Source of the DNA: Pseudomonadota bacterium
GTDB taxonomy: Bacteria; Bdellovibrionota; FAC87; UBA2466
Direction of reading: 5' to 3'
Assembly (NCBI GenBank): GCA_043767805.1
Contig: JAYUGC010000166.1
Span: forward strand, 1 to 22,748
Length of the DNA: 22,748 bases
Position numbers and translations under genes: made by a program. The notes under the pieces are model-generated. The model worked only from the letters and a program-made list of their open reading frames with translations, had not been told where the DNA came from and made no database searches. This document shows positions 1 to 16,990 of the stretch, in pieces (within the stretch, counting starts at the first letter, position 1; every line of letters begins with the position of its first letter).

Positions 1-478
1 TGAAGTAGCCGAAGCTCGCGTCCATCCCCACCAGCACCACGTAATGTCCGTCTTCCCAGTTATCCACCCAAGGCGTTTTGTCGCCCTCGGTGCGCCAAGC
101 CTGAATGTCCAAAATGATGGTCTCGCCCTGGCTTAGGCCAGCGCGCAGATCGCTCAAGGTCGTCGGCTCCTGAAGGCGGACTGAGAGGCCGTAGGATTTC
201 GCCACGCGGACGAGGGAGTCGGGTGCCGTCCCGTCCTTGGGATCGGTGCCCAACGGTCCAAAAAGTGCGGTCTCTCCCTCGTCGGTTTTCTTCCAATACT
301 GCAAGATGCCGAGAAGCGAAGCCGCTCCGCAGCTGTACTCGGTGGACTGGCGGACGATGGGAACGGGGAGGGCGTCGTTCGGAAGTTGAGCGTTCTGGCG
401 TAAGGGGGAAAAGAATCCGCACAACAAAAGGACTGCCACCAGAACCGGAGCGCCTAATTTTAATGAGAAAGACTTCAA
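1..478 (-). CDS. Secreted C39-family (papain-like) cysteine peptidase, 3' end outside window
   Basis: Not in the ORF track; translated by hand from TTG at 478 (GTG at 502 is an in-frame alternative): MKSFSLKLGAPVLVAVLLLCGFF... (signal peptide-like), VPIVRQSTEYSCGAASL (Q-x5-C-G catalytic Cys motif), ...DNWEDGHYVVLVGMD (catalytic His). The frame stays open to the window edge. Confidence 0.85.
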   Translation of the reverse strand, partial: MKSFSLKLGAPVLVAVLLLCGFFSPLRQNAQLPNDALPVPIVRQSTEYSCGAASLLGILQYWKKTDEGETALFGPLGTDPKDGTAPDSLVRVAKSYGLSVRLQEPTTLSDLRAGLSQGETIILDIQAWRTEGDKTPWVDNWEDGHYVVLVGMDASFGYF

Positions 479-488
479 GGCCTTGAAG
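473..488. repeat. Perfect 16-bp palindrome CTTCAAGGCCTTGAAG over the putative C39 peptidase start
   Basis: Read directly; the sequence equals its own reverse complement. Confidence 0.7.
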
Positions 489-541
489 CTACCCCTAGTC
501 ACCGTCCCAAAACAACGGTTAAGTTTCCGGCATTTGGGCTA

Positions 542-571
542 TCGCAACGCATAAAAAGGTTATGGTATAAC
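542..571 (+). promoter_or_regulatory. Possible sigma70 extended -10 promoter
   Basis: TGgTATAAC at 563-571 (TGn + TATAAC), with a weak -35 TCGCAA at 542-547 (18-bp spacer), in an AT-rich divergent intergenic region. Confidence 0.35.
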
Positions 572-671
572 CCGCCCTCCGCCCGGGGGAGTCTTGGCCA
601 GTTTGATCCTGCCCGCTTGGAAAAATTTACTGGTCTCGTTTTTTTCTCAGGTACCAACGTGCGGGCAAAAA

Positions 672-688
672 ACGGCATGGCTGTTGCT
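672..688 (+). promoter_or_regulatory. Sigma54 (RpoN) -24/-12 promoter of the PPTase-NRPS-barrel operon
   Basis: ACGGCATGGCTGTTGCT versus consensus YTGGCACGRNNNTTGCW. GG at 674-675 and GC at 686-687 have the exact N10 spacing, about 50 nt upstream of ATG 738. An A/T tract lies upstream at 621-646. Confidence 0.65.
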
Positions 689-737
689 GAAGAGTTCTGT
701 CGACGGTTTTTTGAAAAAGGGGTTTTTAGGGAGCGGA

Positions 738-1214
738 ATGAAGTTAAGTGAGGGGAATTCAGCCGGTTTCATCGAGGTGGCGCTGACACCTTTCGACTAC
801 CGGGAAATCAACGATCGCGCGGATTGGCTCGACGAAACTGAGACAGCCAAGCTCAACCAGTTCGTCCGCGAGACCGATCGCCGCCGTTTCGTGGCGAGCC
901 GGGTTTTGCTGCGCGAAACTCTGGCGCGGGCGACCGGCATCAGCCCGGCGAAATGGCGCTTTTCCCTGGAAGAGACCGGGCAGTGGCAAGTGGCCGAGAG
1001 CGCCGAGCTGCCTCAGGTCAGTTTCAGTACTTCCCATTGTGGTAACGCGGTCGCGGTAGCCGTCTCGGACCGCTTCCCCGTGGGCATCGATTTCGAGCCA
1101 CTGGCGCCCGGCACTCTCACATTTCCCATTGATGGCGTCTTAAACGATGCCGAGCCTTCGCAAATCCCAAGGATTGGGACGCAGGTCCTCGAGCTTACGA
1201 CTCCAGAGGAATAA
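738..1214 (+). CDS. Sfp-type 4'-phosphopantetheinyl transferase, C-terminally truncated (possible pseudogene)
   Basis: ATG 738 with AGGGAG SD at 728-733. Motifs DRRRFVASRVLLR, FSTSHC and VGIDFE are present. The ORF ends at 158 aa without the W-x-x-K-E-A motif. Confidence 0.75.
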   Translation: MKLSEGNSAGFIEVALTPFDYREINDRADWLDETETAKLNQFVRETDRRRFVASRVLLRETLARATGISPAKWRFSLEETGQWQVAESAELPQVSFSTSHCGNAVAVAVSDRFPVGIDFEPLAPGTLTFPIDGVLNDAEPSQIPRIGTQVLELTTPEE

Positions 1215-1216
1215 CC

Positions 1217-4200
1217 GTGGAAACGACACTACTCGATAAATCAGCAGCTCCTTTAGCCGGCCTTCGGGTCGGTAAGCAGGTTTCCCTTGGGCAGCACGAA
1301 GTCGGCTGTCTCCACGAGCTTTTCGAAGCTCAAGTGGATGCGACTCCGAACGCGATGGCGCTGATTTGCGGCGCTCGCTCGTGGTCGTATTCCGAGCTCG
1401 ATCGCGCGGCCAATCGCATGGCGCGGCTCTTGAAATTTCACGACGTGGGCCCCGGTCAGCTGGTCGGTCTCTACATGGATCGCTCGCACCTTCCGATTAT
1501 TTCGATTCTCGGCATTTTGAAAGCGGGAGCGGCCTACATTCCCATCGATCCGGTGCACCCGAAGGAGCGCATCCGGCACATTTTGAGCGAATCTCAAGCG
1601 ACGCTTCTGCTGACGGAAGCGGCCCTCCAGGAGCTCGCGAAAGAAAGATTCAGCGGCACGACGCTCGTCGTGGATCGTCTCGGCACCGAGCTTACGGGAC
1701 AACCCGATTGGCGGATGTCCAGACAGGAGACGGGCGCGCAAGCCACGGATCTCGCGTACGTGCTTTATACCTCGGGCACCACGGGTCGCCCCAAGGGCGT
1801 CATGGCGGAGCATCACAATGCCGTTCGCTACGTCCATGCTTTCAACGACGCGTGCCGGACGAGTCCCCTCGACCGGGTGTATCAGGGTTTCTCTCTCAGC
1901 TTCGACGGTTCCGTCGAAGAAATCTGGATGGCGTTCTCGAATGGCTCGGCGTTAGTCGTCGGCTCGAATGAGACGCCTCGCTTCGGTAACGATCTGGCGA
2001 AGTACCTCACCGACATGAACGTGAGTTATTTCTCGACGGTGCCGACGTTGCTTTCGACGATGTCGGACGCCATTCCCACGCTCCGCACGCTGGTGGTCAG
2101 CGGCGAGGCCTGTCCGCCCGAATTGGTGGATAAATGGGCGGGGAACGGCTGCCGCTTCTTGAACGTGTACGGCCCGACGGAGTGCACGGTGAACACGACG
2201 ATCGCGGAGTGCGCTCCGGGCCGTCCGGTTACCATCGGCCGTCCTCTGCGCGGCTATCGTCTCTATATTTTGAACGAGAATCTCGAAGTGGTCGCTGACG
2301 GCGAGAAGGGTGAGCTCTTCATCGGGGGCGACACGCTCGCTCGCGGGTACTTGAAGCAGCCCGAGCTTACCGAAAAGACTTTCATGACCGTGTTTTTCGC
2401 GGGAAGTGACGGACCACAGCGGCTTTATCGCACGGGCGATCTCGTGCGCCGTAACGAAGAGGGCGAGCTCGAGTTCTTCGGCCGCATCGACGGTCAGATC
2501 AAGATCCGCGGCTACCGCGTGGAGCTTTCGGAAATCGAATCGGTCCTTCGCGAATTTCCGGGAATCCGCGTCGCCATCGTGAAGCTCGTGAGCGGGGAAG
2601 AGATCGAGCGGCTCGCGGCTTACGTGGTCTTGGACGACAGCGTTCAGGCAATCGACACGAACGAAGTGCTGACTCTCTTGAAGCGCCGCTTGCCCGATTA
2701 CATGGTGCCGGCGTACCTCGACGTGCTCTCCGAAATGCCGATGCTCGCCAGCGGCAAGGCGGATCGCTCGCGCCTTCCGGAAGCGACTCGTCCTTTGATA
2801 CGGACCGACGCTGAGATCATCGCTCCCGCTACCGAGCTCGAGGCGAATGTCGCGGAAGCCTGGCGCAAGGTGCTGGGCGTGCCGAAAGTTTCCGTCGAAG
2901 CGGACTTCTTCACCGAGCTTGGCGGGCACTCGCTTCTCGCCGCTCAAGTGGTGACGATGCTCCGCAATCAGTTCGGTTTGGACGCCGCCATCCGCGACGC
3001 TTACAAGTTTCCGACGGTACGCCAGTTCGCGGCGCACTTGAAGAGCCGCGCGGCCGAAACCGTCGTCGCTCCCAGGGCCGAAGCGAAGGTTGCTTCGAGC
3101 AAAGCCGTGTTCGAGAGCGTCTCGCCTTTAACTCGCCGTCTGGTTACCGTGGGCCAGGCGCTTTCTCTTTACGTCATCTGGGCCATCCGCGGAGCGCCTT
3201 CCGCTCTCGGGCTCTTGGTTCTCTGGCGTCTTTATTGGGGAGCCCTTTCGGTCGTCGGCGCGATGCAATGGCTCGTTGTCATCGGGCTCGCCGTCGTTCC
3301 GGTGAACCTCGCCATCGGCCTCGGCGCGAAATGGATTCTCATCGGCCGCTACAAAGCCGGCCGTTATCCGCTTTGGGGAGCGTTCTACTTCCGCTGGTGG
3401 CTTGCCAATAAACTGCAGGGGTTCTTAGGCGCGGGGACTTTCGCTGGAACGCCTCTCATGAGCCTCTACTTCCGCCTCATGGGCGCGAAAGTGGGACGCG
3501 GCACGCTCCTCGATACGTCAAAAGGCGCCGCTTGGGACCTCATCTCCATTGGCGACGAGACGAGCATCGGATCGGACAGTCAGCTTCTGGGGTACCGCGT
3601 CGAGGACGGCATGCTAGTACTTGGCAAAGTCGAAATCGGCAGCCGCTGTTTCGTGGGTCTGCATTCGGCGCTGGGCCTCAACGTGCGCATGGAAGACGGC
3701 TCGCGCTTGGACGATCAAAGTCTTCTCCCGGATGGCGAAGTGATTGCCGCCGGGCAGGGGCGCCGCGGATCGCCCGCGCAGCCGGCTGAAGTGCCGGTGC
3801 CGGCAGGTGAACGAGAAGTCATCACCACCAAGAAAACCGTTGCTCTGGCCTTGGGCCAGCTCGTCGCCGGTTCGCTCCTTGGGCTTGCCATGATGCCGCT
3901 CGGCTTGGGTCTCATGGGCGCCTTCGTGTTTGCCTTCTGGAAGGGCGGCATCGCCGTCGGAATTTTGGCGGCGATTCTACTCGTCCCCGTCACCACCCCG
4001 CTTACCTGTTTCTATCTCGCGGGCGTAAAGCGGTTGATTCTAACGGGCGCGACGCCCGGCGTTTATTCCATCTACAGCTTGTACTACGTGCGCAAATGGC
4101 TCGTGGACGGTTTGGTCAGCGCGAGCCGCGCGACGCTCCTTCCGCTTTACACCACGATGTACTTGCCCTCGTTCCTGCGGCTCTTGGGCGCGAAGATCGG

Positions 4201-5239
4201 CAAGCGCGCGGAGCTCTCGACGGTCTGGTACTTCTCTCCCGACATGCTCGTCGCTGAAGACGAGAGCTTCTTCGCCGACGGTTGCATCCTGGGCGGGCGC
4301 CGAACGTTCGGTGGCCGCATGCAACTCGGTATTAACCACATCGGCAAGCGCAGCTTCGTCGGTAACAGCGCCATTCTGCCCATGGGCGGCGGCCTCGGAG
4401 ACAACTGCTTACTCGGCGTGCTTTCCTCGCCGCCCGTCGGAAGCGACCGCACGCCGAATGGAACGGAATGGCTTGGCGTGCCGGCGTTCTCGCTCCCCAA
4501 TCGGCCAAAGCCCTATAGCTTCGACGAAGCGGTCACCTTTCGTCCGACGAAAAAGCTCTACGCTCAGCGCGCCGTCGTCGATGCCATGCGCATCTTGATT
4601 CCGGGTTACGTGAGCCTCGCTGCTTTCCTGGCCGGCCTTGTCTCGATGGGGATGATCTACCGCGGTTTTGGTTTTCTCGTCCTCCTAGCTTTGCTTCCGA
4701 TTATCTCCATGGGGCTCTCGACGCTTACCATTCTGACGGTGGTGCTCTTGAAGGTCGTGGTCATGGGTAAGTTCAAGCCCGTGAAGAAGCCGCTTTGGTC
4801 CATGTACGTATGGCTGAACGAAATGGTGAACGGCGCTTACGAGAGCCTCATGTCGCCGGCGCTGGCGCCGCTTCAGGGCACGCCGTTCGTCGCGCCTTTC
4901 TTGCGGCTCATCGGCTGCAAGATCGGCCGGCACACCTACATCGAGTCCACGCTCTTTTCGGAATGGGATCTCGTCGAAGTGGGCGACTACGCGGCGCTCA
5001 ACCTGGGCTCCATCATCCAGACTCATCTCTTCGAAGATCGCGTGATGAAATCGTCGTATCTCAAGATCGGCGATGAGTGCTCGGTCGGCAATATGGCCGT
5101 GGTCCTGTACGACACCGAGATGCAGCAAGGCGCGAACCTGGCTCCGCTCTCGCTCGTGATGAAGGGTGAGCGTCTGGCGCCGTTCACCAAGTGGCACGGC
5201 ATCCCCACGGTGCAGGTTGGTCACGCGGTGACTCAGTGA
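1217..5239 (+). CDS. Pls/PosA-family single-module membrane NRPS (non-alpha poly-amino-acid synthetase-like)
   Basis: A-domain cores SYSELD, YTSGTTGRPKG, FDGS, NVYGPTE, YRTGD, GRIDGQIKIRGYRVELSEIE and SGKADR. T domain FFTELGGHSL (Ser codon 2930-2932). No C or TE domain. The C-terminus has TM pairs alternating with three hexapeptide/acetyltransferase-like domains (LMGAKVG, LLGAKIG, LIGCKIG; QTHLFEDRVMK). SD AGAGGA precedes the GTG start. Confidence 0.92.
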   Translation: METTLLDKSAAPLAGLRVGKQVSLGQHEVGCLHELFEAQVDATPNAMALICGARSWSYSELDRAANRMARLLKFHDVGPGQLVGLYMDRSHLPIISILGILKAGAAYIPIDPVHPKERIRHILSESQATLLLTEAALQELAKERFSGTTLVVDRLGTELTGQPDWRMSRQETGAQATDLAYVLYTSGTTGRPKGVMAEHHNAVRYVHAFNDACRTSPLDRVYQGFSLSFDGSVEEIWMAFSNGSALVVGSNETPRFGNDLAKYLTDMNVSYFSTVPTLLSTMSDAIPTLRTLVVSGEACPPELVDKWAGNGCRFLNVYGPTECTVNTTIAECAPGRPVTIGRPLRGYRLYILNENLEVVADGEKGELFIGGDTLARGYLKQPELTEKTFMTVFFAGSDGPQRLYRTGDLVRRNEEGELEFFGRIDGQIKIRGYRVELSEIESVLREFPGIRVAIVKLVSGEEIERLAAYVVLDDSVQAIDTNEVLTLLKRRLPDYMVPAYLDVLSEMPMLASGKADRSRLPEATRPLIRTDAEIIAPATELEANVAEAWRKVLGVPKVSVEADFFTELGGHSLLAAQVVTMLRNQFGLDAAIRDAYKFPTVRQFAAHLKSRAAETVVAPRAEAKVASSKAVFESVSPLTRRLVTVGQALSLYVIWAIRGAPSALGLLVLWRLYWGALSVVGAMQWLVVIGLAVVPVNLAIGLGAKWILIGRYKAGRYPLWGAFYFRWWLANKLQGFLGAGTFAGTPLMSLYFRLMGAKVGRGTLLDTSKGAAWDLISIGDETSIGSDSQLLGYRVEDGMLVLGKVEIGSRCFVGLHSALGLNVRMEDGSRLDDQSLLPDGEVIAAGQGRRGSPAQPAEVPVPAGEREVITTKKTVALALGQLVAGSLLGLAMMPLGLGLMGAFVFAFWKGGIAVGILAAILLVPVTTPLTCFYLAGVKRLILTGATPGVYSIYSLYYVRKWLVDGLVSASRATLLPLYTTMYLPSFLRLLGAKIGKRAELSTVWYFSPDMLVAEDESFFADGCILGGRRTFGGRMQLGINHIGKRSFVGNSAILPMGGGLGDNCLLGVLSSPPVGSDRTPNGTEWLGVPAFSLPNRPKPYSFDEAVTFRPTKKLYAQRAVVDAMRILIPGYVSLAAFLAGLVSMGMIYRGFGFLVLLALLPIISMGLSTLTILTVVLLKVVVMGKFKPVKKPLWSMYVWLNEMVNGAYESLMSPALAPLQGTPFVAPFLRLIGCKIGRHTYIESTLFSEWDLVEVGDYAALNLGSIIQTHLFEDRVMKSSYLKIGDECSVGNMAVVLYDTEMQQGANLAPLSLVMKGERLAPFTKWHGIPTVQVGHAVTQ

Positions 5240-6282
5240 GGCGGATTGGCTTTTTAATGTTACTTGCGCTGCTTCTCGTGAGAAGTGTCCCCGCGCCCGC
5301 CGAGGCCAAGGAAGCCGGCCTGACCAAAGCCCTCGTGGCCGAAGATCCGCTTGTCTCTTCCTCTGACGATGAGGACGAGGACGACGAGGATGAGGACGGG
5401 GAAGAGGGCGCGCAGACCGTCGCTTCGGCGGACGAAGACGACGAGGACGAGGAACAAATCGTCGTCAATCCGGCGACCGGCACGGGAGCCACGCTCACGG
5501 CTTCGAGCATGCTGAGAGGGTCCGGGGCTTTGAGCGGGTGGTTCGATCTTCGTCCCAGCTGGAGCGACTCGAGCCGACGTTTTCATTCCGAGAACGAAGC
5601 CGCTCTCGAGTACCGCTTCAAGGAAGATCGCGCGGTCGGCTACACCCAGGAGTTTCGCTCGAACCTCTTAAAGGGAGGCGTCGATAGCGATCGCGACGGC
5701 TTTGAGTTCGAGTTGGGCGATGGCTATCTTTGGGGAGACGTCTCCAATATCCTCGCCAACGACTTGGAGACTTTGACCTTGAGCTGGGAGCCTCGCTTGT
5801 ATCTTCCGACCATGCGCTCCGGGCGAGATTCGGGGATGGTGTTCTCCACCCGGCAATACTTGAAGCTCAACTGGGATGTGCAAGAGCACTTCGCACTCTT
5901 TTTGTGGGACGCACCCATTGGCTACGTCTATTCGGCGGCCGGCTACGACGGAGACGACGGGCTTACCGCCAATCGCGCCTTCGAGAATCGCATCGAGCTA
6001 GGCGCTCGTCTCAGTCTCTTTCAAGACAGGCTGACTCTCCGGCTCCCCGTTATTTTACAAAGTGTCCGGCACCGGAAGTTCGTGGCGGAAGCCACCAATC
6101 ATGACGCGTGGACACATTCGGTCTGGATCCACCCCGAGATCATGGTCCAGGTGGCCGCGAAAACCAGCGTGGGCTTGGCGTACTACAGCGACAGTCTCGC
6201 CGATGAACAACTGGCCAAAGCCGACCTGAGCTCCGGGCTAAAAAGAGGCGTGATCCAGCTAGTTCTCCAGCAGTCGATCTGA
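5236..6282 (+). CDS. Exported protein, putative outer-membrane beta-barrel with polyacidic N-terminal arm
   Basis: GTG 5236 overlaps the NRPS TGA (GTGA). Signal peptide MRRIGFLMLLALLLV...AEA, then D/E tracts, then many amphipathic aromatic-rich strands (ALEYRF, GYTQEF, GYLWG, LSWEPRLY, YLKLNW, RIELG, VGLAYY). Final strand IQLVLQQSI. Confidence 0.65.
   Translation: MRRIGFLMLLALLLVRSVPAPAEAKEAGLTKALVAEDPLVSSSDDEDEDDEDEDGEEGAQTVASADEDDEDEEQIVVNPATGTGATLTASSMLRGSGALSGWFDLRPSWSDSSRRFHSENEAALEYRFKEDRAVGYTQEFRSNLLKGGVDSDRDGFEFELGDGYLWGDVSNILANDLETLTLSWEPRLYLPTMRSGRDSGMVFSTRQYLKLNWDVQEHFALFLWDAPIGYVYSAAGYDGDDGLTANRAFENRIELGARLSLFQDRLTLRLPVILQSVRHRKFVAEATNHDAWTHSVWIHPEIMVQVAAKTSVGLAYYSDSLADEQLAKADLSSGLKRGVIQLVLQQSI
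5365..5454 (+). repeat. Low-complexity GAC/GAG/GAT codon tracts encoding DDEDEDDEDEDGEE and DEDDEDEE
   Basis: 21 Asp/Glu in 30 residues, read directly. Confidence 0.85.
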
Positions 6283-6403
6283 CAGTCTCTCTAATGGTCG
6301 CGCTCGCTTGACTCAGGCGGCTCGCAGTCGCTATGAATGTGGAGTAGGTTGTAGGCGGCTTTCCTTATATTCCGTCGGAAAAATGTGGGAGATTGGAGCC
6401 GAA

Positions 6404-8587
6404 ATGTTAGCGACCCGTTCGTCTACCATCGGACACAGAACTCACGGCTCTGGCTCGCTTTGGCGCTCTGTACCCATTTCCGTTGGCGTGTTCGCAATTT
6501 TATTTTCCCTTTGCGTGTTGCTCATCTGGATCTCAGGCTCCGACGAGCTGAGGGCTATCGTCTCCAGCCGGATGAAGGTCAATTCCGCCCTGGGTTGTCT
6601 TTTGATCGCCTCGGGTATCCTGGTCTGGCTCTGGGGTGAAGCTCCCCGGCCTGGAAGCCGGAGACTTCTCGCCGTCCGAGGGATCGCGGGTCTTGCCCTC
6701 GTCGTCGGTGGCGGCACGCTCATCGAATATGGGGCTGGAGTGAGTCTCGGCATCGACGAGCTCTTCATCCGGGATCAAGTGGCTTTGGGACAGGCGAGCT
6801 TTCCGGGCCGTATGGCGCTCAACGCCGCCATTTGTCTCTCTTTGCTGGGGCTCGCTCTTTTTGGCCGCACCCTGGGTGAGGAGCACCCGCTCCGGCGACA
6901 TAGTGCCAAAGGGCTCGTTTTGAACTTGCTCATCTGCCTGGGCGTGTTGTTCGGTTATCTCTATAACGCCCACGATTTTTATCAGTTCGCTTCCTTTCTG
7001 CGCATGTCGCCTTATACGGCGTTTGCCGACATCTGGCTGGCGGTGGCTATCTTTTGTCTCGATCCGCGAAGCTCCGAGATGCGCAACCTTTTTGGCCCGG
7101 GCCGCGGGTCTCAGGTGGCGCGCTGGTTGTTGCCGCCGGCGCTTATTTTGCCGGCGCTCCTCGGCCGCTTCCGGCTTTGGCTGCAGAACGAAAACGTCGT
7201 CAGCCCCGAAGAAAGCATGGCGTTCGTTTCGGTGCTGATGATTGTCATGTTCGCCTCCATCGTCTGGGCGGCGGCGCGATCGCTCAACGCGGGAGGCGAT
7301 CGAGAAGCGCTCGCGCAAGCCGAGACGGAAATTGAGCGAGAACGGTTGTCGGCGTCGCTTGCCACTTTGCGTTCCATTCACCAGGTGAGCAAGCAAGTCT
7401 CCGGCGAGCTCGACATGGAAAAGCTTGTGCAGAACGTCACGGACGCGGCGACGAGACTCAGTCACGCCCAGCTGGGAGCGTTTTTCTACAACGTCGTATC
7501 CGAAAAGGGAGAGTCCTACGTTTTGTACGCCATTTCGGGAGTGCCTCGGGAGGCGTTCTCGAAGTTTCCCATGCCTCGCAACACGGAAGTGTTCGCTCCG
7601 ACCTTCGCAGGTAAGGGTGTCGTGCGCAGCGCAGACATTCGGAAAGATCCTCGGTACGGGAAAAATGACCCGTACTTTGGAATGCCAGTCGGCCACTTGC
7701 CGGTGGCGAGTTATCTCGCGGTCTCAGTCGTCTCCCGCTCGGGCGAGGTGCTCGGCGGTCTCTTCTTCGGGCACGAGCAAAGGGGAGTTTTCACGGAGCG
7801 AGAAGAAGAGCTGGTCGTGGGACTCGCATCCCAGACGGCCATCGCCATGGACAACGCCCGCCTTTACGAGCGCGCTCAGAAAGCCATTCAGACCCGGGAT
7901 GAGTTTCTGTCGGTCGCTTCCCACGAGCTGAAGACCCCGCTCACGAGCCTTTCCCTTCAAGCGCAGCTTCGCTTGCGGCAGCTCGCCAAAAATCCGGAAG
8001 GGGCGATTTCGGCCGACAAGTGGAAGGCCTTACTCGAAGGCGACCTGCGCCAGTTCAAGCGAGTCAATCGGCTCATCGAGGACATGCTGGACATCGGCCG
8101 GATCAGCGCCGGCAAAATGAGCGTCGAGCCCGAAGAAACCGATTTGACGGTGCTGGCGGGCAACGTGATCGAAAGGCTCAAGCCCCAATACGAGGCGGCC
8201 GGTTGCCAAGTGGACTTGAAGACGGAGCCCGAAGCTTTTGCCGAGGTGGATGGCTTTCGCTTGGAGCAGGTGCTAGTCAACATGCTTTCCAATGCCTTCA
8301 AATACGGCGCGGGTAGGCCCATTGAAGTAGAAGTCCGAAAAGCCGCGGAAGGCGTCGAGCTACTCGTTCGCGATCAAGGCCGTGGTATTGCTCCCGAGGA
8401 CGCCCGGCGCATTTTTCGGCGCTTCGAGCGAGCGGTGCCCGGCAAGGAGATTAGCGGTCTCGGGCTCGGGCTCTACATCGCCGACCAAATCGTCGCGGCC
8501 CATCGCGGCCGCATTTCCGTGGATAGCGGATTGGGGAAGGGCGCGCTCTTTCGCGTCTGGGTCCCTCGCCACTTCGTCGCGTCTTAA
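6404..8587 (+). CDS. Membrane sensor histidine kinase (about 8 TM + GAF + HisKA + HATPase), orphan
   Basis: ATG 6404 with GGAG at 6395-6398. Hydrophobic N-terminus, GAF (...SYLAVSVVSRSGEVLGGLFFGH...AIAMDNARLY), H-box ASHELKTPL, N-box NMLSNAFKY, G1 DQGRGI, G2 GLGLGL. Confidence 0.92.
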   Translation: MLATRSSTIGHRTHGSGSLWRSVPISVGVFAILFSLCVLLIWISGSDELRAIVSSRMKVNSALGCLLIASGILVWLWGEAPRPGSRRLLAVRGIAGLALVVGGGTLIEYGAGVSLGIDELFIRDQVALGQASFPGRMALNAAICLSLLGLALFGRTLGEEHPLRRHSAKGLVLNLLICLGVLFGYLYNAHDFYQFASFLRMSPYTAFADIWLAVAIFCLDPRSSEMRNLFGPGRGSQVARWLLPPALILPALLGRFRLWLQNENVVSPEESMAFVSVLMIVMFASIVWAAARSLNAGGDREALAQAETEIERERLSASLATLRSIHQVSKQVSGELDMEKLVQNVTDAATRLSHAQLGAFFYNVVSEKGESYVLYAISGVPREAFSKFPMPRNTEVFAPTFAGKGVVRSADIRKDPRYGKNDPYFGMPVGHLPVASYLAVSVVSRSGEVLGGLFFGHEQRGVFTEREEELVVGLASQTAIAMDNARLYERAQKAIQTRDEFLSVASHELKTPLTSLSLQAQLRLRQLAKNPEGAISADKWKALLEGDLRQFKRVNRLIEDMLDIGRISAGKMSVEPEETDLTVLAGNVIERLKPQYEAAGCQVDLKTEPEAFAEVDGFRLEQVLVNMLSNAFKYGAGRPIEVEVRKAAEGVELLVRDQGRGIAPEDARRIFRRFERAVPGKEISGLGLGLYIADQIVAAHRGRISVDSGLGKGALFRVWVPRHFVAS

Positions 8588-8610
8588 AAGGTACTAACTT
8601 TCTTTTAAGA
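8582..8610. repeat. Inverted repeat TCTTAAAAG-N11-CTTTTAAGA, copy 1 (possible terminator or recombination/operator site)
   Basis: Perfect 9-bp arms at 8582-8590 and 8602-8610, overlapping the kinase stop codon. The same arms recur at 21534-21559. Confidence 0.7.
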
Positions 8611-8638
8611 ACTCGCAAAATAGTTTAAAAGTTGAATT

Positions 8639-11600
8639 GTGGTGCTTAAAGAATTCTCCTCGTGCGGCGTTGGGTTCGTCGTCGGCCTGGACAACCAATT
8701 CACGCATGAAAACCTTCAGCTAGGACTGAAAGCCCTGGGCAATTTGGAGCACCGGGGTGGCGCGAGTCCCGACGGGCGGGGCGGCGATGGCGCCGGCGTC
8801 ATGACCGACATTCCGCGGGATCTGCTCGGAGTCGCCGAAGGCGATGCCGTCGCCAATCTCTTTCTTCCCAGAGACCCCACGGCCCGGGTCCGCTCTTTGA
8901 AGATTTTCGAAGAGACTTTCAGCAACCTCGGCCTCGAAGTCCTTCAGTACCGCGAGGTTCCTTTTCGTCCCGAGGTACTTTCGCCGGGCGTGCAAGGAAA
9001 CCGCCCTGAGTTTCTGATGGCCGTCATCCGGCGCCCAGATCAGTGCAACACCCGCTTCACTTTCGAAAAACTTCTCTATGGAGCCAAGCAGCTGACCCGC
9101 AGCCGGCTGCGCGAAGCGGGCATCGTAAAGCAGTTTTTCTTCACCTCGCTTTCGGCGCAGACCATCGTTTACAAGGGGCTCACCCCGTCCGATGGGCTGA
9201 CCGAGCTTTTTCCCGATTTGAAAGATCCGCACTTCAAGACGCGCTTCGTCCTCTTTCATCGCCGATTTAGCACCAATACGGCGACCGCCTGGGATACGGC
9301 GCAACCCTTCCGCGTGGTAGCCCACAACGGTGAGATCAACACCATCTCGGGCAACCGGTCCTGGGCGTACTCGCGGGAACGGGCTTTGGGCCTTCGCGAA
9401 GACGAGCTTCTCACGCACCGGGGGATCAGCGACTCAGGGTCGGTCAACGAGATGATCGAGGCGCTTCTCTTTAGAAGCAGCATTCCGCACCCGGAAGACA
9501 TTCTCGCCATCATGATGCCGAAGGCGGAAACGGATCACTCCTTTTACAAATTTTGGCGCCGGGCCATGGAGCCCTGGGATGGGCCGGCTCTCTTCACGTT
9601 TTCCGACGGGCGCACCATTGGGGCGCGCCTCGACCGGAGCGGCTTTCGTCCGTGCCGCTGGTCTCGCACCGATAAACACTTCTTCCTGTCGTCCGAAGCC
9701 GGCTCTTTCGAAGTGCCCGAGTCGGAAGTCCGCGCGAAGGGCCATTTGAGCGGCGGCTCTTCGGTCACGATCCATATTCCGACGGCTTCGGTTCATTTCC
9801 GGGATCCGAGCGAAGGCCGGGAGAACCGCCACGCCACTTTCGATCCTCGGGTCGCCGAGCTCTCCCGTCTCGTGCCACCCCGTCAGGGCGAGCTCGATTC
9901 CGAGCGGCTCGAGCTTTTTCGCTTCACGGAGGAAGACTTGCGCCGGCTCATTGAGCCCCTGGTGCGAGAAGGCAAAGAGGCCATCGGGTCCATGGGGGAC
10001 ACCGCTCGCTTGGCCGTGCTCTCCGACGAGTACCGCTCGTTCTTCGATTTCTTCTATCAGCGCTTTGCCCAGGTAACGAATCCTCCGCTCGATTTCCTCC
10101 GGGAAAAGATCGTCACCGACATGTCCATCATCTTAGGACGTAAGCCCAATATCTTCGAGCCCAAGGAGCTCGTTCCGCTGAAGCTCGGGATCGAGCTGCC
10201 GGGTCCCGTGCTGACTTTGGGGCAGGCCGAGTTCTTAAAGGGACTCGAGGGCGAGGACGGGTTCGCGGGCTCGTGGCCGGCGTCTCGCACCTTCGACACG
10301 ACCTTTTCGAAGGCGGAAGGCCTTGCGGGAATGCTCGCCAAGCTCGAGCTCCTCAAACGGGAAGTGGTCGACGCCGTCCGAAACCACGTGAGCGTTCTCA
10401 TTTTGAGCGATCGCTCCGCGACCGAGCTGACTCCCGCCATTCCCTCCCTTCTCGTGCTGGTGACGATGCTCCAGGCTCTCAATCAGAGGGGCATGCGCCT
10501 TCGCGCTTCCTTCGTGATCGATAGCGGAGAGGTGAAGGAAACCCATCACGTCGCCGTCTTGACCGCTTTCGGAGCCGCCGCGGTTTGTCCTTATTTGACC
10601 TTGCAACTCGCTCGCTCCGCGCCCACTGAGATTTTTGGCGCTAAACCCGTGGAAGGCACGGCCGACGAGCGCGAGCTCAAGGTGGTCAAAGCCCTTGAGG
10701 CTGGGCTTCTCAAGGTGATGTCGAAAATGGGGATTTCCGTTTTCCGCAGCTATCAAGGGGCTGAGCTGTTCACCGTCCTGGGGCTTTCCGCCGAGGTCCA
10801 TCAAAAGTTCTTCCCGGCTCATGAATCGGTCATGGGAGGTTTGAGTCTCGCGGGACTCGCTGAATGGATTCTGAAAGATGTCTCCGACCCGGCCTTGGCT
10901 CGGGGGCCTTCGGGCCGCGTGCACAATTATCTCTACCAAGAGCATCCGCGCAGTCCCGTCGGTGAGAAGCATGCGATGACTTTACGCCGGTCGAAGCTCG
11001 TGCACAAAGTGGTCGCGCCCGCCGAAGGCGAAGACGCTTACGGCGATTTAATCAGAGGGACGGAAGAAGCGCCCATCTCTTTTCGCCATCTCCTTCGCCC
11101 CAAAGTGGCTCCGCAAGGGTTGAAGCTGGACGCGGTTCTCTCGCGTCGGGACGTGCTGAAGACGTTCGGCTCGGGAGCCATGTCGTTCGGGGCGATTAGC
11201 GCCGAAGCCCAGAGAGATCTGTTCCTCGCCATGCGGGAAGTGGGCGGCCGGAGCAATAGCGGCGAAGGGGGAGAGAATCCCTATTATTTTACCGAGGGCA
11301 TCACCGCGCAGACGAAACAAGTCGCGTCCGGCCGCTTCGGCGTGACCGCCGAGTACCTGATTACCGGTGAAGAAATTCAGATCAAGATCGCCCAAGGCGC
11401 CAAACCCGGGGAAGGGGGCCAGCTCATGGCGGCCAAAGTCGGCCCCGATATCGCCCGTGCCCGGCATTCCGATACGAACGTCGATCTCATTTCGCCGCCT
11501 CCGATGCACGACATCTACAGCATCGAAGACTTAAAGCAGCTCATTTTCGAGTTTCGGCAGTTAAAGCCGAAGACGCGGATCAGCGTGAAGCTCGTTTCGG

Positions 11601-13036
11601 GTGAGAACATCGGAGCCATCGCCGTCGGGGTCGCCAAGGCCGGAGCCGACGTCATTCATGTCGCTGGTCATGATGGCGGCACGGGGGCCGCGACCTTGAG
11701 CTCCATGAAGCACGCTGGCCTTCCTTGGGAGATCGGTCTTTCGGAAGTGCACCGGACCCTCGTCGCGCAAAAGGTGCGGGACACTGTGACCTTGCGGGTC
11801 GACGGCGGGCTCGTCACGGGCCGCGATATTTTGCTCGCGAGCGCGCTCGGCGCGGAAGAGTTCGAGTTTGGAAAGCTGCTTCTAGTCGCCGAGGGCTGCA
11901 TCATGGCCCGCATCTGCGAGAAGAACACCTGCCCGACGGGAATCGCGACCCACGATCCGAAGTTCAAGAAGCTCTACCGGGGCTCGAAAGAGAAAGTCGT
12001 TCGCCTGCTCGAGCGGCTAGCCGATGATGTGCGGGCGCAGCTGGCGGCCGCGGGTGTGGCTTCGCTTTCCGAAATGGTGGGCCGGTCGGATCTTTTGGAG
12101 ATCGACCCCGCTCATCAAGCTTTGGTCGATAAGCGCGGCCTCGATCTGACCGTGCTGCTTGCGCCCTCTCAGTCTCTTGGCCCGAAGCTCGTCAGCCCCT
12201 TCGCGGAGGCGGTGTCTTCGCTGAACCAGCGGCTTCTCGCCGACGTCGAAATGGGTAAAGTGAGCGCGTCGGGTTATCCGATTAAGCCCCAGGACCGCGC
12301 CGTTCCCGCGACCCTCGTTGGTCACGGCGCGCAGTTGCGAGTGTCCGGCAAAAAGACTTTGGCGCCGCTCTCTTTGCTTTTCCGCGGCAGCGCGGGGCAG
12401 GGATTCGGTGTCTTCCTGGAAGAGGGCACTTCGCTCCGGCTCCACGGCGAAGCCAACGACTCGGCGGGTAAGTCCATGTCGGGCGGTCGGATCGTCATCG
12501 TGCCCGCGCCGGAAAGCACGTTTTTCGCCGAGACCAATACCGTGATCGGCAACTGCGCACTCTACGGCGCAACCGGCGGCGTTTTTTACGCGAAGGGTGT
12601 CGCGGGTAACCGTTTCGCCGTCCGAAATAGCGGCGCGGTGGCCGTCGTCGAGGGCGTGGGCATGCACGCGTGCGAGTACATGACGCGCGGAACGGTAGTC
12701 GTACTCGGCGCGGCGGGCAGCAATATCGGAGCGGGTATGACCGGCGGCACGCTCTATCTACGACGGGACAAAGCTTCTCTGCTCAACGTCGAGTATCTGC
12801 GGGCGGTGGAATGTACCGGGGATGATGTCTCGGCCCTCGTGTCCTTGCTCAGCGACTATCACCGCGAGACGGCGAGCTCCACCGCGGCGGACTTGCTCAC
12901 GAGCCCGGAGACGCTCGGCGCTTTCTTCGTCAAATGTCTACCGCTTCGCATGGCTCAGCAGCTCGAGGAGCTGCCCACTAAGTTGCCTCTCGCGGCGCTC
13001 GTCGCCGAGACTACCTCGGCGCGGCTACCGCACTAG
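8639..13036 (+). CDS. gltB: Glutamate synthase large subunit
   Basis: N-terminal CGVGF nucleophile Cys; HRRFSTNT, HNGEINT, MEPWDGP, FAQVTNPP, AMSFGAIS, SNSGEGGE, KQVASGRFGV, AQGAKPGEGGQL and ISPPPMHDIYSIEDL; 3Fe-4S motif CIMARICEKNTC; GXGXG C-terminal domain. Exact start (8639 or 8642) is uncertain. Confidence 0.96.
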   Translation: MVLKEFSSCGVGFVVGLDNQFTHENLQLGLKALGNLEHRGGASPDGRGGDGAGVMTDIPRDLLGVAEGDAVANLFLPRDPTARVRSLKIFEETFSNLGLEVLQYREVPFRPEVLSPGVQGNRPEFLMAVIRRPDQCNTRFTFEKLLYGAKQLTRSRLREAGIVKQFFFTSLSAQTIVYKGLTPSDGLTELFPDLKDPHFKTRFVLFHRRFSTNTATAWDTAQPFRVVAHNGEINTISGNRSWAYSRERALGLREDELLTHRGISDSGSVNEMIEALLFRSSIPHPEDILAIMMPKAETDHSFYKFWRRAMEPWDGPALFTFSDGRTIGARLDRSGFRPCRWSRTDKHFFLSSEAGSFEVPESEVRAKGHLSGGSSVTIHIPTASVHFRDPSEGRENRHATFDPRVAELSRLVPPRQGELDSERLELFRFTEEDLRRLIEPLVREGKEAIGSMGDTARLAVLSDEYRSFFDFFYQRFAQVTNPPLDFLREKIVTDMSIILGRKPNIFEPKELVPLKLGIELPGPVLTLGQAEFLKGLEGEDGFAGSWPASRTFDTTFSKAEGLAGMLAKLELLKREVVDAVRNHVSVLILSDRSATELTPAIPSLLVLVTMLQALNQRGMRLRASFVIDSGEVKETHHVAVLTAFGAAAVCPYLTLQLARSAPTEIFGAKPVEGTADERELKVVKALEAGLLKVMSKMGISVFRSYQGAELFTVLGLSAEVHQKFFPAHESVMGGLSLAGLAEWILKDVSDPALARGPSGRVHNYLYQEHPRSPVGEKHAMTLRRSKLVHKVVAPAEGEDAYGDLIRGTEEAPISFRHLLRPKVAPQGLKLDAVLSRRDVLKTFGSGAMSFGAISAEAQRDLFLAMREVGGRSNSGEGGENPYYFTEGITAQTKQVASGRFGVTAEYLITGEEIQIKIAQGAKPGEGGQLMAAKVGPDIARARHSDTNVDLISPPPMHDIYSIEDLKQLIFEFRQLKPKTRISVKLVSGENIGAIAVGVAKAGADVIHVAGHDGGTGAATLSSMKHAGLPWEIGLSEVHRTLVAQKVRDTVTLRVDGGLVTGRDILLASALGAEEFEFGKLLLVAEGCIMARICEKNTCPTGIATHDPKFKKLYRGSKEKVVRLLERLADDVRAQLAAAGVASLSEMVGRSDLLEIDPAHQALVDKRGLDLTVLLAPSQSLGPKLVSPFAEAVSSLNQRLLADVEMGKVSASGYPIKPQDRAVPATLVGHGAQLRVSGKKTLAPLSLLFRGSAGQGFGVFLEEGTSLRLHGEANDSAGKSMSGGRIVIVPAPESTFFAETNTVIGNCALYGATGGVFYAKGVAGNRFAVRNSGAVAVVEGVGMHACEYMTRGTVVVLGAAGSNIGAGMTGGTLYLRRDKASLLNVEYLRAVECTGDDVSALVSLLSDYHRETASSTAADLLTSPETLGAFFVKCLPLRMAQQLEELPTKLPLAALVAETTSARLPH

Positions 13037-14244
13037 GCGGGCTTTAGAGCCGAGCCCAAGATTTCGACCGCTTGGGCGATTTGTTCGGCGTTAATCACGA
13101 GCGGCGGAGCGAAACGCACGACGTTGTCGCGGGTTTCCTTCGCGAGCAGCCCTTTCGCTTTTAGCGCGAGACAGAGATCCTTGCCCTTGGGTCCTTTTTC
13201 GATATCGAGCACGATGGCATTGAGCAGGCCTTTGCCGCGCACGTTCAAGATATAAGGCGATTTGAGGGCTTCCACGCTTTTGCGGAAGAGCTCTCCCATC
13301 GTTTGCGCGTTCTCGGCGAGCTTTTCGTCTTGAACCACCTGGAGAGCGGTGGTCGCCACCGCGCAGGCGAGCGAGTTACCGCCAAAAGTAGAGCCATGGT
13401 CGCCCGGCTGGAAGGTGAGCATCACCGCGTCGTCGGCGAGGACCGCCGACACGGGCATGGTGCCGCCCGAAAGCGACTTACCGAGGACGACGATGTCCGG
13501 GCGCACGTTCTCGTGATCGCACGCCAGGCGTCTGCCCGTGCGGGCAATGCCCGTTTGAATCTCGTCGGCGATGAAGAGGACTTCCGCCGAGGTGCAAAGC
13601 TCGCGCACGCCTTTTAGGTAGCCTTCCGGAGGGACGACCACGCCGCCTTCGCCCTGAATGGGCTCGACCACAAAGCCCGCCACCGTGGGATCTTTGAGCG
13701 CGGTCTCCAGCGCCTTCAAGTCGCCAAACGGAATGTGGAGAAAGCCCGGGACGAAGGGACCAAAGCTCGCGCGGCTCGCGGGACTCGAGGACGCCGAAAT
13801 GGCGGCCATGGTGCGGCCATGGAAATTGTTCTCACAGAAAATGATCTTGGCTTCGTTCTCGGGGATGCCCTTCGTCTTATAGCCCCACTTACGGCAAAGC
13901 TTGATGGCAGTTTCCACGGCTTCGACGCCAGTGTTCATGGCGAGCACGCGGTCGTAGCCGAAGTACTCGGTGATGGCTTTGGCGAAGGGTCCGAAGGTGT
14001 GGTTGTAAAACGCCCGCGACACGAGCGTCAGCTCGCCCGCCTGCTTGCTGAGCGTCTCGATGATTCTCGGATGACAGTGCCCTTGGCTGACCGCGCAGAT
14101 GCCGGAGAGAAAATCGAGATAGCGCACGCCTTCCGGATCCCAGACGTAAACGCCTTTTCCTTTGGAAAGCACCACGGGAAGCGGCGAGTAGTTCTGCGCG
14201 CCGTACTGTTTCTCTAAAGCGATGGTTTCTTCGGTGCTTAACAT
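13033..14244 (-). CDS. rocD: Class III PLP aminotransferase of ornithine aminotransferase (RocD) type, probably acting as acetylornithine aminotransferase
   Basis: YGAQNYSPLPVVL, QGHCHP, MNTGVEAVETA, NFHGRT, EPIQGEGG, DEIQTG, LGKSLSGG and HGSTFGGN. Last gene of the argG-argH run. Confidence 0.85.
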   Translation of the reverse strand: MLSTEETIALEKQYGAQNYSPLPVVLSKGKGVYVWDPEGVRYLDFLSGICAVSQGHCHPRIIETLSKQAGELTLVSRAFYNHTFGPFAKAITEYFGYDRVLAMNTGVEAVETAIKLCRKWGYKTKGIPENEAKIIFCENNFHGRTMAAISASSSPASRASFGPFVPGFLHIPFGDLKALETALKDPTVAGFVVEPIQGEGGVVVPPEGYLKGVRELCTSAEVLFIADEIQTGIARTGRRLACDHENVRPDIVVLGKSLSGGTMPVSAVLADDAVMLTFQPGDHGSTFGGNSLACAVATTALQVVQDEKLAENAQTMGELFRKSVEALKSPYILNVRGKGLLNAIVLDIEKGPKGKDLCLALKAKGLLAKETRDNVVRFAPPLVINAEQIAQAVEILGSALKPA

Positions 14245-15614
14245 TTGAGGGCCTCCTTGGCTTTCTCGATTTGGACGGTGACGGCGGAAGAGCCCGTGCC
14301 TCCGCGAGTCGACCGCGCTTCCACGCCTCGTTCGGGAAGGAGCCAGGGGCCGACGTCACTCGAAATGAGCGGTGAAAAGGCCGCGAACTGCTGGGGCGTC
14401 AGCGACTCGATGGCGGTTCCCTCGGTCACGCAGTGGCGCACGACTTTACCGACGACTTCGTGGGCCTGCCGGAAGGGCAAGCCTTTGTGCACGAGGTAAT
14501 CGGCGAGCTCGGTGGCGTTCGAGAAATCACCCGCGATGGCTTCCCGCATCCGTTCCGGATGGAAAGTCGTCACTTTGAGCGTAATGAAAGCGAGCCGCAC
14601 GCAGGAGCGTACCGTATCGACGCCTTGAAAGAGATGAACTTTGTCTTCCTGAAGGTCCCGGTTGTAAGCGAGCGGTAGACCCTTTAAGACGGTAAGGGCG
14701 CCCATGAGGCCTCCGACCAGCCGGCCCACGCGGCCGCGGATGAGCTCCGCGACGTCGGGATTCTTCTTCTGCGGCATGAGGCTACTGCCCGTCGTGACGG
14801 AATCGGCAAGCGTAATGAAGCCGAACTCCGGGGTGCTCCAGAGAATGATTTCTTCAGCGAGGCGAGAGAGATGGACGAGTATCAAGGAACCGGCCGCGAG
14901 GTACTCGACCACGAAGTCGCGATCGGACACGGCGTCGAGGCTGTTTTCGCAAACGCCTTCGAAGCCGAGCTCTTTGGCGACCGCAAGCCTATCGATGGGA
15001 TAGGGCGTGCCCGCTAAGGCGCCTGAACCCAGAGGCAGTTGATTGACCCGCTTGCGGCAATCTGCGAGACGAGCTCGGTCGCGGTCGAGCATCCAGAAGT
15101 ACGCCATCAGATGGTGAGCGAGACTCACTGGCTGGGCGTGCTGAAGATGCGTCATGCCAGGAAGGAGAGTCTTGAGATTCGCTTCCGCGGTCGTGACGAG
15201 CCATTCCTGAAGGGCGCGAATTTGCGTAATGTCTCCGTCGATTTCGCCGCGCAGGTAAAGGCGGGTCGCGGTCGCGACCTGGTCGTTCCGGCTACGCCCC
15301 GTATGGAGCTTTCCGGCAAGCGCCGCGACTTTTTCGCCGAGCCACTTTTCGATTTCGGAATGAATGTCTTCCGCTTCCGGATCGAAACGCCGTTTGCCTT
15401 GGGCGAGCTCTCCCGCCATGGCTTCCAAGGCGGAGACCAGCCCTAAGCCTTCAGCTTCGGTCAGCACTCCAGCTTTAACGAGCGACCGGGCGTGGGCGCG
15501 GCTCGCCGTGAGATCCGCCGCCGCAAGCCGCGCATCCGAAGCGATGGAGGTGGAGAAAGCCTCCACCTCTTTATCCGTGCCGCCCTCGAACCGGCCGCCC
15601 CAAAGCTTACTCAC
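14238..15614 (-). CDS. argH: Argininosuccinate lyase
   Basis: KLWGGRF, EDIH, LHTGRSRNDQVAT, THLQHAQP, GSSLMPQKKNPD, YNRDLQEDK. Confidence 0.97.
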   Translation of the reverse strand: MSKLWGGRFEGGTDKEVEAFSTSIASDARLAAADLTASRAHARSLVKAGVLTEAEGLGLVSALEAMAGELAQGKRRFDPEAEDIHSEIEKWLGEKVAALAGKLHTGRSRNDQVATATRLYLRGEIDGDITQIRALQEWLVTTAEANLKTLLPGMTHLQHAQPVSLAHHLMAYFWMLDRDRARLADCRKRVNQLPLGSGALAGTPYPIDRLAVAKELGFEGVCENSLDAVSDRDFVVEYLAAGSLILVHLSRLAEEIILWSTPEFGFITLADSVTTGSSLMPQKKNPDVAELIRGRVGRLVGGLMGALTVLKGLPLAYNRDLQEDKVHLFQGVDTVRSCVRLAFITLKVTTFHPERMREAIAGDFSNATELADYLVHKGLPFRQAHEVVGKVVRHCVTEGTAIESLTPQQFAAFSPLISSDVGPWLLPERGVEARSTRGGTGSSAVTVQIEKAKEALKC

Positions 15615-16906: not shown

Positions 16907-16951
16907 AAAAACCAATAGCGCAATGAGAAATCGCTTGGTTACGCATGAAAA

Positions 16952-16990
16952 ATCGGTTAATAATGCATATAGCATGCATAATTATTCACC
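16952..16990. promoter_or_regulatory. Tandem ARG boxes at the argC start
   Basis: Strong box CATGCATAATTATTCACC (16973-16990), preceded at 3-bp spacing by a degenerate box ATCGGTTAATAATGCATA (16952-16969). Confidence 0.72.

Follow-up and report, generated by a model that had tools for sequence, protein, structure and literature searches.

Pocket code of a Pls/PosA-family synthetase from a Bdellovibrionota bacterium and gene neighbourhoods of its relatives point to beta-lysine as its probable substrate

Which amino acid is activated by a single-module polymer synthetase whose gene lies 3.4-16 kb upstream of a complete arginine pathway, and do the two have anything to do with each other? This question is raised by contig JAYUGC010000166.1 of a Pseudomonadota bacterium (assembly GCA_043767805.1; Bdellovibrionota in the GTDB lineage), all 22,748 bp of which were analysed and are called the window here. 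The contig (C166) is part of a 4.52-Mb genome in 204 contigs (G000) that is rated 100% complete. A sequence-only reading of the window had extracted the pocket code DGESVSVVNK from the adenylation (A) domain of the synthetase, had assigned it to a basic diamino acid, possibly ornithine or a shorter one, and had suggested that the downstream genes might supply it. We arrive at a different substrate. With a probability that we put at roughly 65%, the synthetase is an enzyme of the epsilon-poly-beta-lysine type, and the arginine cluster next to it is unrelated. Both the code and the connection between it and beta-lysine have been published before.

A pocket code close to that of a beta-lysine enzyme

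The synthetase matches the NCBIfam model TIGR02353 ('Pls/PosA family non-ribosomal peptide synthetase') over residues 663-1330 with 560.8 bits, the cut-off being 423.1 (563.4 bits in the whole-genome search), and TIGR01733 with 419.4 bits against a cut-off of 317.4. In its A domain, Pfam recognises AMP-binding at residues 36-379 (2.2e-81) and AMP-binding_C at residues 439-514, and the best solved relatives of this domain include 1amu, 7wew (the A domain of Pls) and 8g95 (the A domain of PosA). The carrier (T) domain has a GGHSL motif at residues 569-573, whose serine, S572, is invariant across 32 homologues. Beyond the carrier domain Pfam gives weak Hexapep matches only, and it found neither a condensation nor a thioesterase domain in the protein. 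A simple Kyte-Doolittle scan places the hydropathy peaks in three pairs, at about residues 651-704, 875-929 and 1126-1172. This predicted layout agrees with the description of Pls and PosA as having six transmembrane (TM) helices in three pairs and three tandem soluble beta-helix regions, C1-C3, in the PosA paper (Patel and Gulick 2023, PMC10522769). Since the family score is above its cut-off and the A domain, the T domain and the TM pairs are all present, the gene encodes, as far as its domain composition tells, a synthetase with a single module that makes homopolymers of cationic amino acids. All members of the family with cationic substrates keep an Asp at the first and a Glu at the third pocket position (PMC10522769), and D230 and E234 of the window synthetase satisfy this rule. 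In this respect the basic diamino acid of the sequence-only reading was well chosen, as the protein is of the Pls/PosA type and has Asp235 and Glu239 in GrsA numbering, and beta-lysine is such an amino acid.

The register of the pocket also stands as it had been drawn by hand, with every code residue and motif at the position given (Table 1). In a phmmer comparison with GrsA-PheA (1amu), protein residues 209-445 matched chain residues 214-450; the two ranges are of equal length with an offset of +5, and D230 thus corresponds to GrsA 235. At positions 299 and 301 the register rests on the motif LRxLxxGGE, which we take to place these two positions, and on residue spacing in PosA, GrsA having been compared by matched ranges. 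The published pocket residues of PosA are 217, 218, 221, 260, 280, 304, 312 and 313 (PMC10522769). They align with residues 230, 231, 234, 273, 293, 317, 325 and 326 of the window synthetase at a constant offset of 13 and without any change in spacing. At other loci, the same alignment columns return DMEHNGTVTK, which may be set beside PosA's published DMEHNGTVSK, and they also recover Ala-236 codes of the Lys type and Phe-236 codes.

The code is highly conserved. Among the best 119 non-self homologues of the synthetase, which are 51-73% identical to it, 108 have exactly DGESVSVVNK, and the remaining 11 are made up of DGESISVVNK (5), DGESVSAVNK (4), DGESVAAVNK (1) and one truncated sequence. 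To judge from these homologues, the pocket code is under strong constraint.

What, then, does the code say about the substrate? The closely similar DGESISVVNK is the code of an enzyme that has been characterised, the epsilon-poly-beta-lysine synthetase of Streptoalloteichus hindustanus NBRC 15115 (PMC10522769). Nine of the ten positions are the same in the window synthetase, the sole change being I299V, and most members of the clade have the Val form. Position 299 corresponds to Asn280 of PosA, and in the crystal structures of PosA this residue makes no contact with the substrate (PMC10522769). The same source describes GrsA position 236 as setting the chain length, its side chain becoming smaller as substrates grow longer, with Phe for 2,3-diaminopropionate (Dap) and 2,4-diaminobutyrate (Dab), Met for ornithine (in PosA) and Ala for lysine, and it remarks of a Methylomarinum homologue, likewise DGESISVVNK, that its Gly 'might activate a larger substrate'. 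The window synthetase has a Gly (Gly231) at this position and not the Ala of the Lys-type codes (DAESIG.V.K). With the ornithine code of PosA, DMEHNGTVSK, it agrees at 4 of 10 positions. Taken together, the 9/10 match to the beta-lysine code and the 4/10 match to the ornithine code indicate that the pocket points to beta-lysine. The earlier proposal of ornithine or a shorter diamino acid therefore does not hold up well, as a longer substrate is to be expected with Gly at 236, and the nearest published code is that of a beta-lysine enzyme.

Aminomutase linkage and a possible source of beta-lysine

It was a lysine 2,3-aminomutase gene adjoining the synthetase gene that led to the discovery of the beta-lysine polymer (PMC10522769), and the gene neighbourhood thus offers a test of whether this linkage follows the code. 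A scan with one genome per species yielded 80 synthetase loci (numbered L), at 68 of which the full ten-residue code is readable, the A domain being cut or missing at the other 12. Neighbouring genes of the KamA family of radical-SAM enzymes were sought by tblastn and re-checked with hidden Markov models (HMMs). Such a gene directly adjoins the synthetase at 20 of the 26 loci with the code DGES[VI]SV[VI]NK (15/19 with Val-299 and 5/7 with Ile-299), and at none of the 42 loci with other codes, which comprise the Lys-type DAES (33), Phe-236 types, the PosA type and one DVES. Fisher's test gives p = 3e-12 for this contrast, a value that is too favourable, given the kinship among the loci. At two of the six loci without such a neighbour the flanks are very short, one locus (L010) having 1 bp upstream and 1.1 kb downstream, and the other (L031) 1.6 kb upstream.

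The KamA neighbours occur in four arrangements: they lie either upstream of the synthetase, co-directional or divergent, or downstream of it, co-directional or convergent. Two KamA subtypes are represented among them, and they come from several phyla. This variety argues for a linkage between aminomutase and synthetase that is maintained by selection, and not for one inherited accident. In the 17 KamA neighbours that are complete at the checked columns, the CxxxCxxC motif, the pyridoxal phosphate lysine and the equivalent of Asp293 in the solved clostridial lysine 2,3-aminomutase 2a5h are kept throughout, and the equivalent of Asp330 is kept in 16. We take these two Asp residues to be the binders of the epsilon-amine of lysine.

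In a FastTree phylogeny of 69 sequences, the window synthetase lies inside the DGES clade. Its sister (L007) is from its closest relative in the genome collection, an uncultured Pseudobdellovibrionaceae metagenome-assembled genome (MAG; G004) of the same genus, whose synthetase is 73% identical at the protein level. Going outward from this pair, the next neighbours are two Myxococcota loci, followed by the KamA-linked actinomycetes Kineosphaera (L043) and Pilimelia (L019). The Ile and Val forms of the code are interspersed within one clade and have the same aminomutase linkage. Lys-type loci fall in other clades with the exception of one (L032), and the PosA-type codes (L070, L083) are in another clade. 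The exceptional locus, from a Lacipirellulaceae MAG (synthetase at 9734-14041), has the code DAESIGTVDK and no aminomutase neighbour; it may represent a switch of specificity back to alpha-lysine. A further peculiarity was seen in an Akkermansiaceae MAG (L016, 9932-15178), where the synthetase frame has about 1750 amino acids, some 400 more than usual. The extra length may come from a fusion at the C-terminus, or else from the frame having been read through from stop to stop.

Where would the window bacterium obtain its beta-lysine? On contig C74 of the same genome, two divergent KamA-like genes encode proteins of 346 and 458 amino acids, both of which score below every equivalog cut-off. The shorter one is EpmB-like and probably serves the modification of EF-P; a GenX/EpmA-like gene is present on contig C63. 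The longer one matches 2a5h with an E-value of 2.2e-47, has the equivalents of both Asp residues presumed to bind lysine, and shares 57-58% identity with the aminomutases encoded next to the synthetases of Kineosphaera and Pilimelia. Enzymes of the EpmB type form (R)-beta-lysine, those of the clostridial type (S)-beta-lysine. For comparison, 34 genomes of the bacterial family (G000-G033) were scored for the synthetase, ArgJ and the KamA-like gene. In most of them a match resembling the 346-residue protein lies within about 1.3 kb of the 458-residue gene on the same contig. The 458-residue gene is core to the family, and its phylogenetic profile against the synthetase is thus uninformative. For the same reason it is a plausible source of beta-lysine and not one shown to be dedicated.

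We envisage the following sequence of events. The adenylation domain would activate L-beta-lysine (3,6-diaminohexanoate), with Glu234 holding the distal amine and Gly231 leaving room for a longer or shifted substrate. Beta-lysine would then be loaded onto Ser572 of the carrier domain, and the membrane domain would add the units singly via the epsilon-amine, such that a polycation of the epsilon-poly-beta-lysine type is released from the cell. As the supplier of beta-lysine we propose the KamA-type lysine 2,3-aminomutase on contig C74, and not the neighbouring genes.

Several observations weigh against beta-lysine as the substrate. By tblastn and HMM search, no KamA-family match was found in the operon or on the whole 22.7-kb contig, and no aminomutase lies beside the synthetase in the Bdellovibrionota relatives L007, L013 and L040 either. 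The 458-residue protein stays below the NCBIfam cut-off for lysine 2,3-aminomutase (193 vs 525), and its gene is found in 33 of the 34 family genomes, with or without a synthetase, which is itself present in 6. The DGES loci are kin, and the contrast of 20/26 to 0/42 thus overstates their independence. The basal node of the DGES clade has a support of 0.688, and the Lys-type code nested within this clade (DAESIGTVDK, L032) indicates that codes can switch. The open literature gave no paper characterising the DGESVSVVNK variant. As for the Ile form, the A domain of the Methylomarinum homologue was insoluble in the PosA study (PMC10522769). Finally, the reference code of S. hindustanus is second-hand, as quoted in the PosA paper, and was compared as a code, not as a full sequence.

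The weakest link in the case for beta-lysine is its source, a core gene of the family, and it is this that keeps ordinary L-alpha-lysine alive as an alternative. The enzyme would then make epsilon-poly-L-lysine, and a pocket with Gly236, Ser301, Val322 and Asn331 would be a second solution for lysine. This would accord with the lack of an aminomutase at the synthetase here and in the three other Bdellovibrionota loci. It would also accord with Asp235, Glu239 and Ser278 being common to Lys-type codes such as DAESIGTV.K, and with a tree in which the sister group of the clade is of the Lys type and one Lys-type locus is nested inside it. Furthermore, PosA takes lysine weakly, so that pockets in this family are not absolute (PMC10522769). 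However, the sole characterised enzyme with this pocket makes a polymer of beta-lysine (PMC10522769), and Gly at 236 implies a larger pocket than that of the lysine enzymes. Alpha-lysine would, moreover, leave unexplained why an aminomutase adjoins the synthetase at 20/26 loci as against 0/42, the latter including all 33 Lys-type DAES loci. We consider alpha-lysine unlikely.

It is also conceivable that some other large cationic amino acid is activated (e.g., arginine, beta-arginine, homolysine or a hydroxylated lysine), which would give a polymer that has not been described. No paper characterising the Val-299 form was found in the open literature, and a Bdellovibrionales Pls homologue with the code DSECYGGVTK was modestly active, and with L-arginine only (PMC10522769). 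In addition, the KamA family includes arginine and glutamate 2,3-aminomutases, and both copies in the genome fall below every equivalog cut-off. Against such a substrate stand the match to the beta-lysine enzyme at 9/10 positions with the changed position being a non-contact one (PMC10522769), as well as the single clade in which Ile and Val forms are interspersed with the same aminomutase linkage. The KamA neighbours also retain both Asp residues, whose role in lysine binding is presumed here. On balance this alternative appears improbable.

Arginine genes and operon partners

The cluster of arginine genes downstream of the synthetase is complete, as the sequence-only reading had stated, but its proposed role in supplying the synthetase is not borne out. 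None of the genes for ArgC, ArgJ, ArgB, ArgF, ArgG, ArgH or the ornithine aminotransferase (OAT) was found within 10 kb of the synthetase at any of the 80 related loci (0/80). In the whole 4.52-Mb genome, argJ and argC have one match each above the cut-off, both of them in the window; being single-copy, they mark the cluster as the housekeeping arginine pathway. The aminotransferase is rocD-like, scoring as an ornithine-oxo-acid transaminase (TIGR01885, Table 1), and reaches 394.9 bits with the argD model TIGR00707, whose cut-off of 410.05 is passed by no gene of the genome.

Within the bacterial family, the synthetase is present in 6/34 genomes and ArgJ in 5/34, and the two overlap in this genus only. 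ArgJ is missing from four of the six synthetase-bearing genomes, and one genome of the family (G018; 98% complete, 8 contigs) has a synthetase with the same code and no ArgJ. The carriers of ArgJ belong to three genera, this one among them. With ArgJ in 5/34 genomes, arginine prototrophy thus seems to be the exception in the family, and the whole pathway is probably as limited as ArgJ.

In the same-genus MAG, the phosphopantetheinyl transferase (PPTase) gene, a C39-like peptidase gene, the synthetase, the barrel gene described below and gltB are syntenic with the window. Its synthetase contig ends about 800 bp past gltB, without a match to OAT or ArgH, and its arginine genes are on a different contig of 7.3 kb, truncated on either side. 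With the limit that this contig ends where it does, the synthetase and the arginine genes are essentially unlinked in the relatives. The arginine genes thus most likely lie next to the synthetase by chance, and the reservation of the sequence-only reading that the adjacency may be coincidental was justified, with 0/80 relatives having the arrangement and synthetase and ArgJ meeting in this genus only.

It is very improbable that the enzyme activates ornithine, Dab or Dap and that the gltB-arg genes raise the supply of ornithine for a polymer of the delta-poly-ornithine type: Asp235 and Glu239 would fit any cationic diamino acid, the complete pathway is close by, gltB is near the synthetase in three relatives and this genus combines synthetase and pathway in a family where the latter is rare (5/34), but the code matches DMEHNGTVSK at 4/10 positions with Gly at 236 predicting a longer substrate (PMC10522769), PosA-type DMEHNGTVTK (L070, L083) and Phe-236 codes of the Dap/Dab type fall in other clades, the arginine genes are absent within 10 kb in 80 of 80 relatives and are the only copies of the genome, ArgJ is missing in 4/6 synthetase-bearing family genomes, and a histidine kinase gene and gltB separate arginine genes that lie on both strands from the operon. 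The histidine kinase is not kept in the same-genus relative, which has two unrelated open reading frames (ORFs) in its place. gltB lies downstream of the synthetase there too (78% identity), and is 15 kb away in G018.

Table 1. Coordinates of the features discussed; positions refer to the window unless contig C74 is named
Feature	Positions	Strand	Remarks
C39-like peptidase domain protein	2-502	-	runs off contig start; divergent from PPTase gene
Sfp/HetI-type 4'-phosphopantetheinyl transferase	594-1214	+	stop 2 nt before synthetase start
Pls/PosA-family single-module synthetase (predicted)	1217-5239	+	1340 aa; A domain, T domain, membrane polymerisation domain
Adenylation domain	1322-2758	+	residues 36-514; ends at A10 lysine K514
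Pocket residues	1901-2760	+	D230 G231 E234 S273 V293 S295 V317 V325 N326 K514 = DGESVSVVNK
FDGSVEE motif	1901-1921	+	D230, G231, E234
YFSTVP motif	2027-2044	+	S273
LVVSGE motif	2090-2107	+	V293, S295
NVYGPTE motif	2162-2182	+	V317; then V325, N326
GKADR motif (K514 codon)	2756-2758	+	A10 lysine
Pocket codons, first five	D230 1904-1906; G231 1907-1909; E234 1916-1918; S273 2033-2035; V293 2093-2095	+	
Pocket codons, last five	S295 2099-2101; V317 2165-2167; V325 2189-2191; N326 2192-2194; K514 2756-2758	+	
Carrier (T) domain	2849-3040	+	Pfam PP-binding, residues 545-608, 5.1e-15
C-terminal membrane polymerisation domain	3203-5206	+	three TM hairpins between three beta-helix-like soluble parts
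Secreted barrel protein	5236-6282	+	signal peptide, Asp/Glu-rich stretch, predicted outer-membrane beta-barrel of ~260 aa
GAF-HisKA-HATPase sensor histidine kinase	6308-8587	+	between synthetase operon and gltB
gltB, glutamate synthase large subunit	8639-13036	+	Pfam GATase_2, Glu_syn_central, Glu_synthase, GXGXG
Ornithine aminotransferase-like gene	13033-14244	-	TIGR01885, 619.5 bits vs cut-off 378.4
argH	14238-15614	-	
argG	15611-16816	-	
argC	16923-18098	+	
argJ	about 18122-19291	+	
argB	19292-20161	+	
argF	20131-21084	+	
argR	ends 21539	+	
Small protein with phage ABA-sandwich domain	21560-21982	-	PF18066, 2.7e-12; after argR
238-aa ORF	22029-22745	-	no family match; after argR
KamA-like gene, 346 aa (locus L006)	contig C74, 10486-11526	-	EpmB-like, 319 bits vs cut-off 369
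KamA-like gene, 458 aa (locus L006)	contig C74, 11579-12955	+	lysine-2,3-aminomutase-like; divergent from 346-aa gene

The immediate neighbours of the synthetase are a PPTase gene and a gene for a secreted barrel protein, and the three form an operon. A scan of positions 400-8800 gave no promoter-like sites, and terminator-like sites were about as frequent as expected (12 vs 10.4). The PPTase matches Pfam AASDHPPT_N (1.9e-10) and the HetI-like model of NCBIfam (1.1e-12, below the cut-off). Its position next to the synthetase is conserved in the same-genus relative (60% identity), and weaker matches are found at L030, L033, L048 and L123. The C39-like peptidase gene at the start of the contig is likewise conserved at the same place in this relative (57% identity).

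The probable start of the barrel ORF is the GTG at 5236, which overlaps the stop of the synthetase as GTGA and would couple the two genes in translation. The 363-residue frame has a run of Asp and Glu at about residues 57-90 and matches no Pfam or NCBIfam family even at E-values up to 5, and 268 representative homologues were found at E<=1e-3. An AlphaFold2 model from a 62-sequence alignment is all-beta with a mean pLDDT of 93.2. By Foldseek, its best match is FapF (5o65/5o67; E 3e-7, TM-score 0.54-0.63), and further matches are the COG4313 channel 4rl8, NanC and OmpG. The acidic stretch is present in the same-genus homologue and not in that of another family member (G001), and is thus specific to this genus. 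We also considered whether the barrel protein is a general partner of these synthetases and rejected this, as, of the 80 loci, no others than L007 and L040 were matched by an HMM of its family; the barrel family adjoins the synthetase in Bdellovibrionota loci only (2/80).

With its predicted acidic tail and its gene next to that of a polycation synthetase, the barrel may have a role in export or self-protection. One could go further and imagine that the core KamA-type aminomutase of the family let the synthetase be captured without one of its own, and that the acidic tail of the barrel, which would have 12-14 strands, binds the nascent polycation so that it passes through the outer membrane, an idea that we hold tentatively and regard as doubtful. 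If it were true, a diderm, probably predatory lineage would wield poly-beta-lysine as a weapon and have a module of its own for exporting it and protecting itself, a module without a described counterpart among polylysine producers.

Comparison with known systems

The analysis moves the predicted substrate from ornithine to beta-lysine and drops the pathway link to the arginine genes. What remained of the sequence-only reading are the basic diamino acid and the caution about coincidence. Members of the DGES clade come from Actinomycetota, Alpha-proteobacteria, Planctomycetota, Verrucomicrobiota, Myxococcota and Bdellovibrionota, usually with an aminomutase alongside, and polycations of the poly-beta-lysine type may therefore be far commoner than the single actinomycete example suggests. 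The rule of code plus aminomutase would be a simple predictor for genome mining, and the polymer attracts attention for its antimicrobial and cell-penetrating properties (PMC9606270). Further interest is confined to how widely the Val-299 clade occurs together with a partner aminomutase, and to the coupled barrel protein. In the literature on Bdellovibrio and poly-L-lysine, no such synthetase was found reported for the group, save for the different Bdellovibrionales homologue of the PosA paper.

PosA, the delta-poly-L-ornithine synthetase of Acinetobacter baumannii (PDB 8G95-8G98), shares TIGR02353, the layout of A, T and membrane domains and the Asp/Glu pair of the pocket with the window synthetase. 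Among the differences between the two pockets are Met218 to Gly, Thr304 to Val and Ser313 to Asn, of which Thr304 and Ser313 contact the delta-amine of ornithine in PosA (PMC10522769); PosA uses ornithine and its code type belongs to another clade. Pls, the epsilon-poly-L-lysine synthetase of Streptomyces albulus (7WEW), is of the same family and architecture (A domain match with E 3.1e-79). Asp235, Glu239 and Ser278 are shared with the Lys-type enzymes, but these have Ala236, Gly301 and Thr or Ser322 where the window synthetase has Gly236, Ser301 and Val322, along with Asn331, and unlike the DGES clade they have an aminomutase neighbour at 0/33 loci (Lys-type DAES).

The barrel protein may be compared with FapF, the barrel that secretes functional amyloid in Pseudomonas (PDB 5O65), which is likewise small and encoded in the operon of a secreted polymer. 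The sequence identity is 10-11%, and the predicted likeness is one of fold, shared also with NanC, OmpG and the COG4313 channel.

The closest known system is the epsilon-poly-L-beta-lysine synthetase of S. hindustanus NBRC 15115 (Yamanaka et al., ACS Chem Biol 2022, as quoted in PMC10522769), which has the same family and architecture and nine of the ten code residues, and which was found through an aminomutase linkage that the clade of the window synthetase also shows (PMC10522769). The window synthetase differs from it in having Val at position 299 and no adjoining lysine 2,3-aminomutase gene. Its host is a diderm of the Bdellovibrionota and not an actinomycete, and to the synthetase its operon adds a coupled PPTase and an outer-membrane barrel gene.

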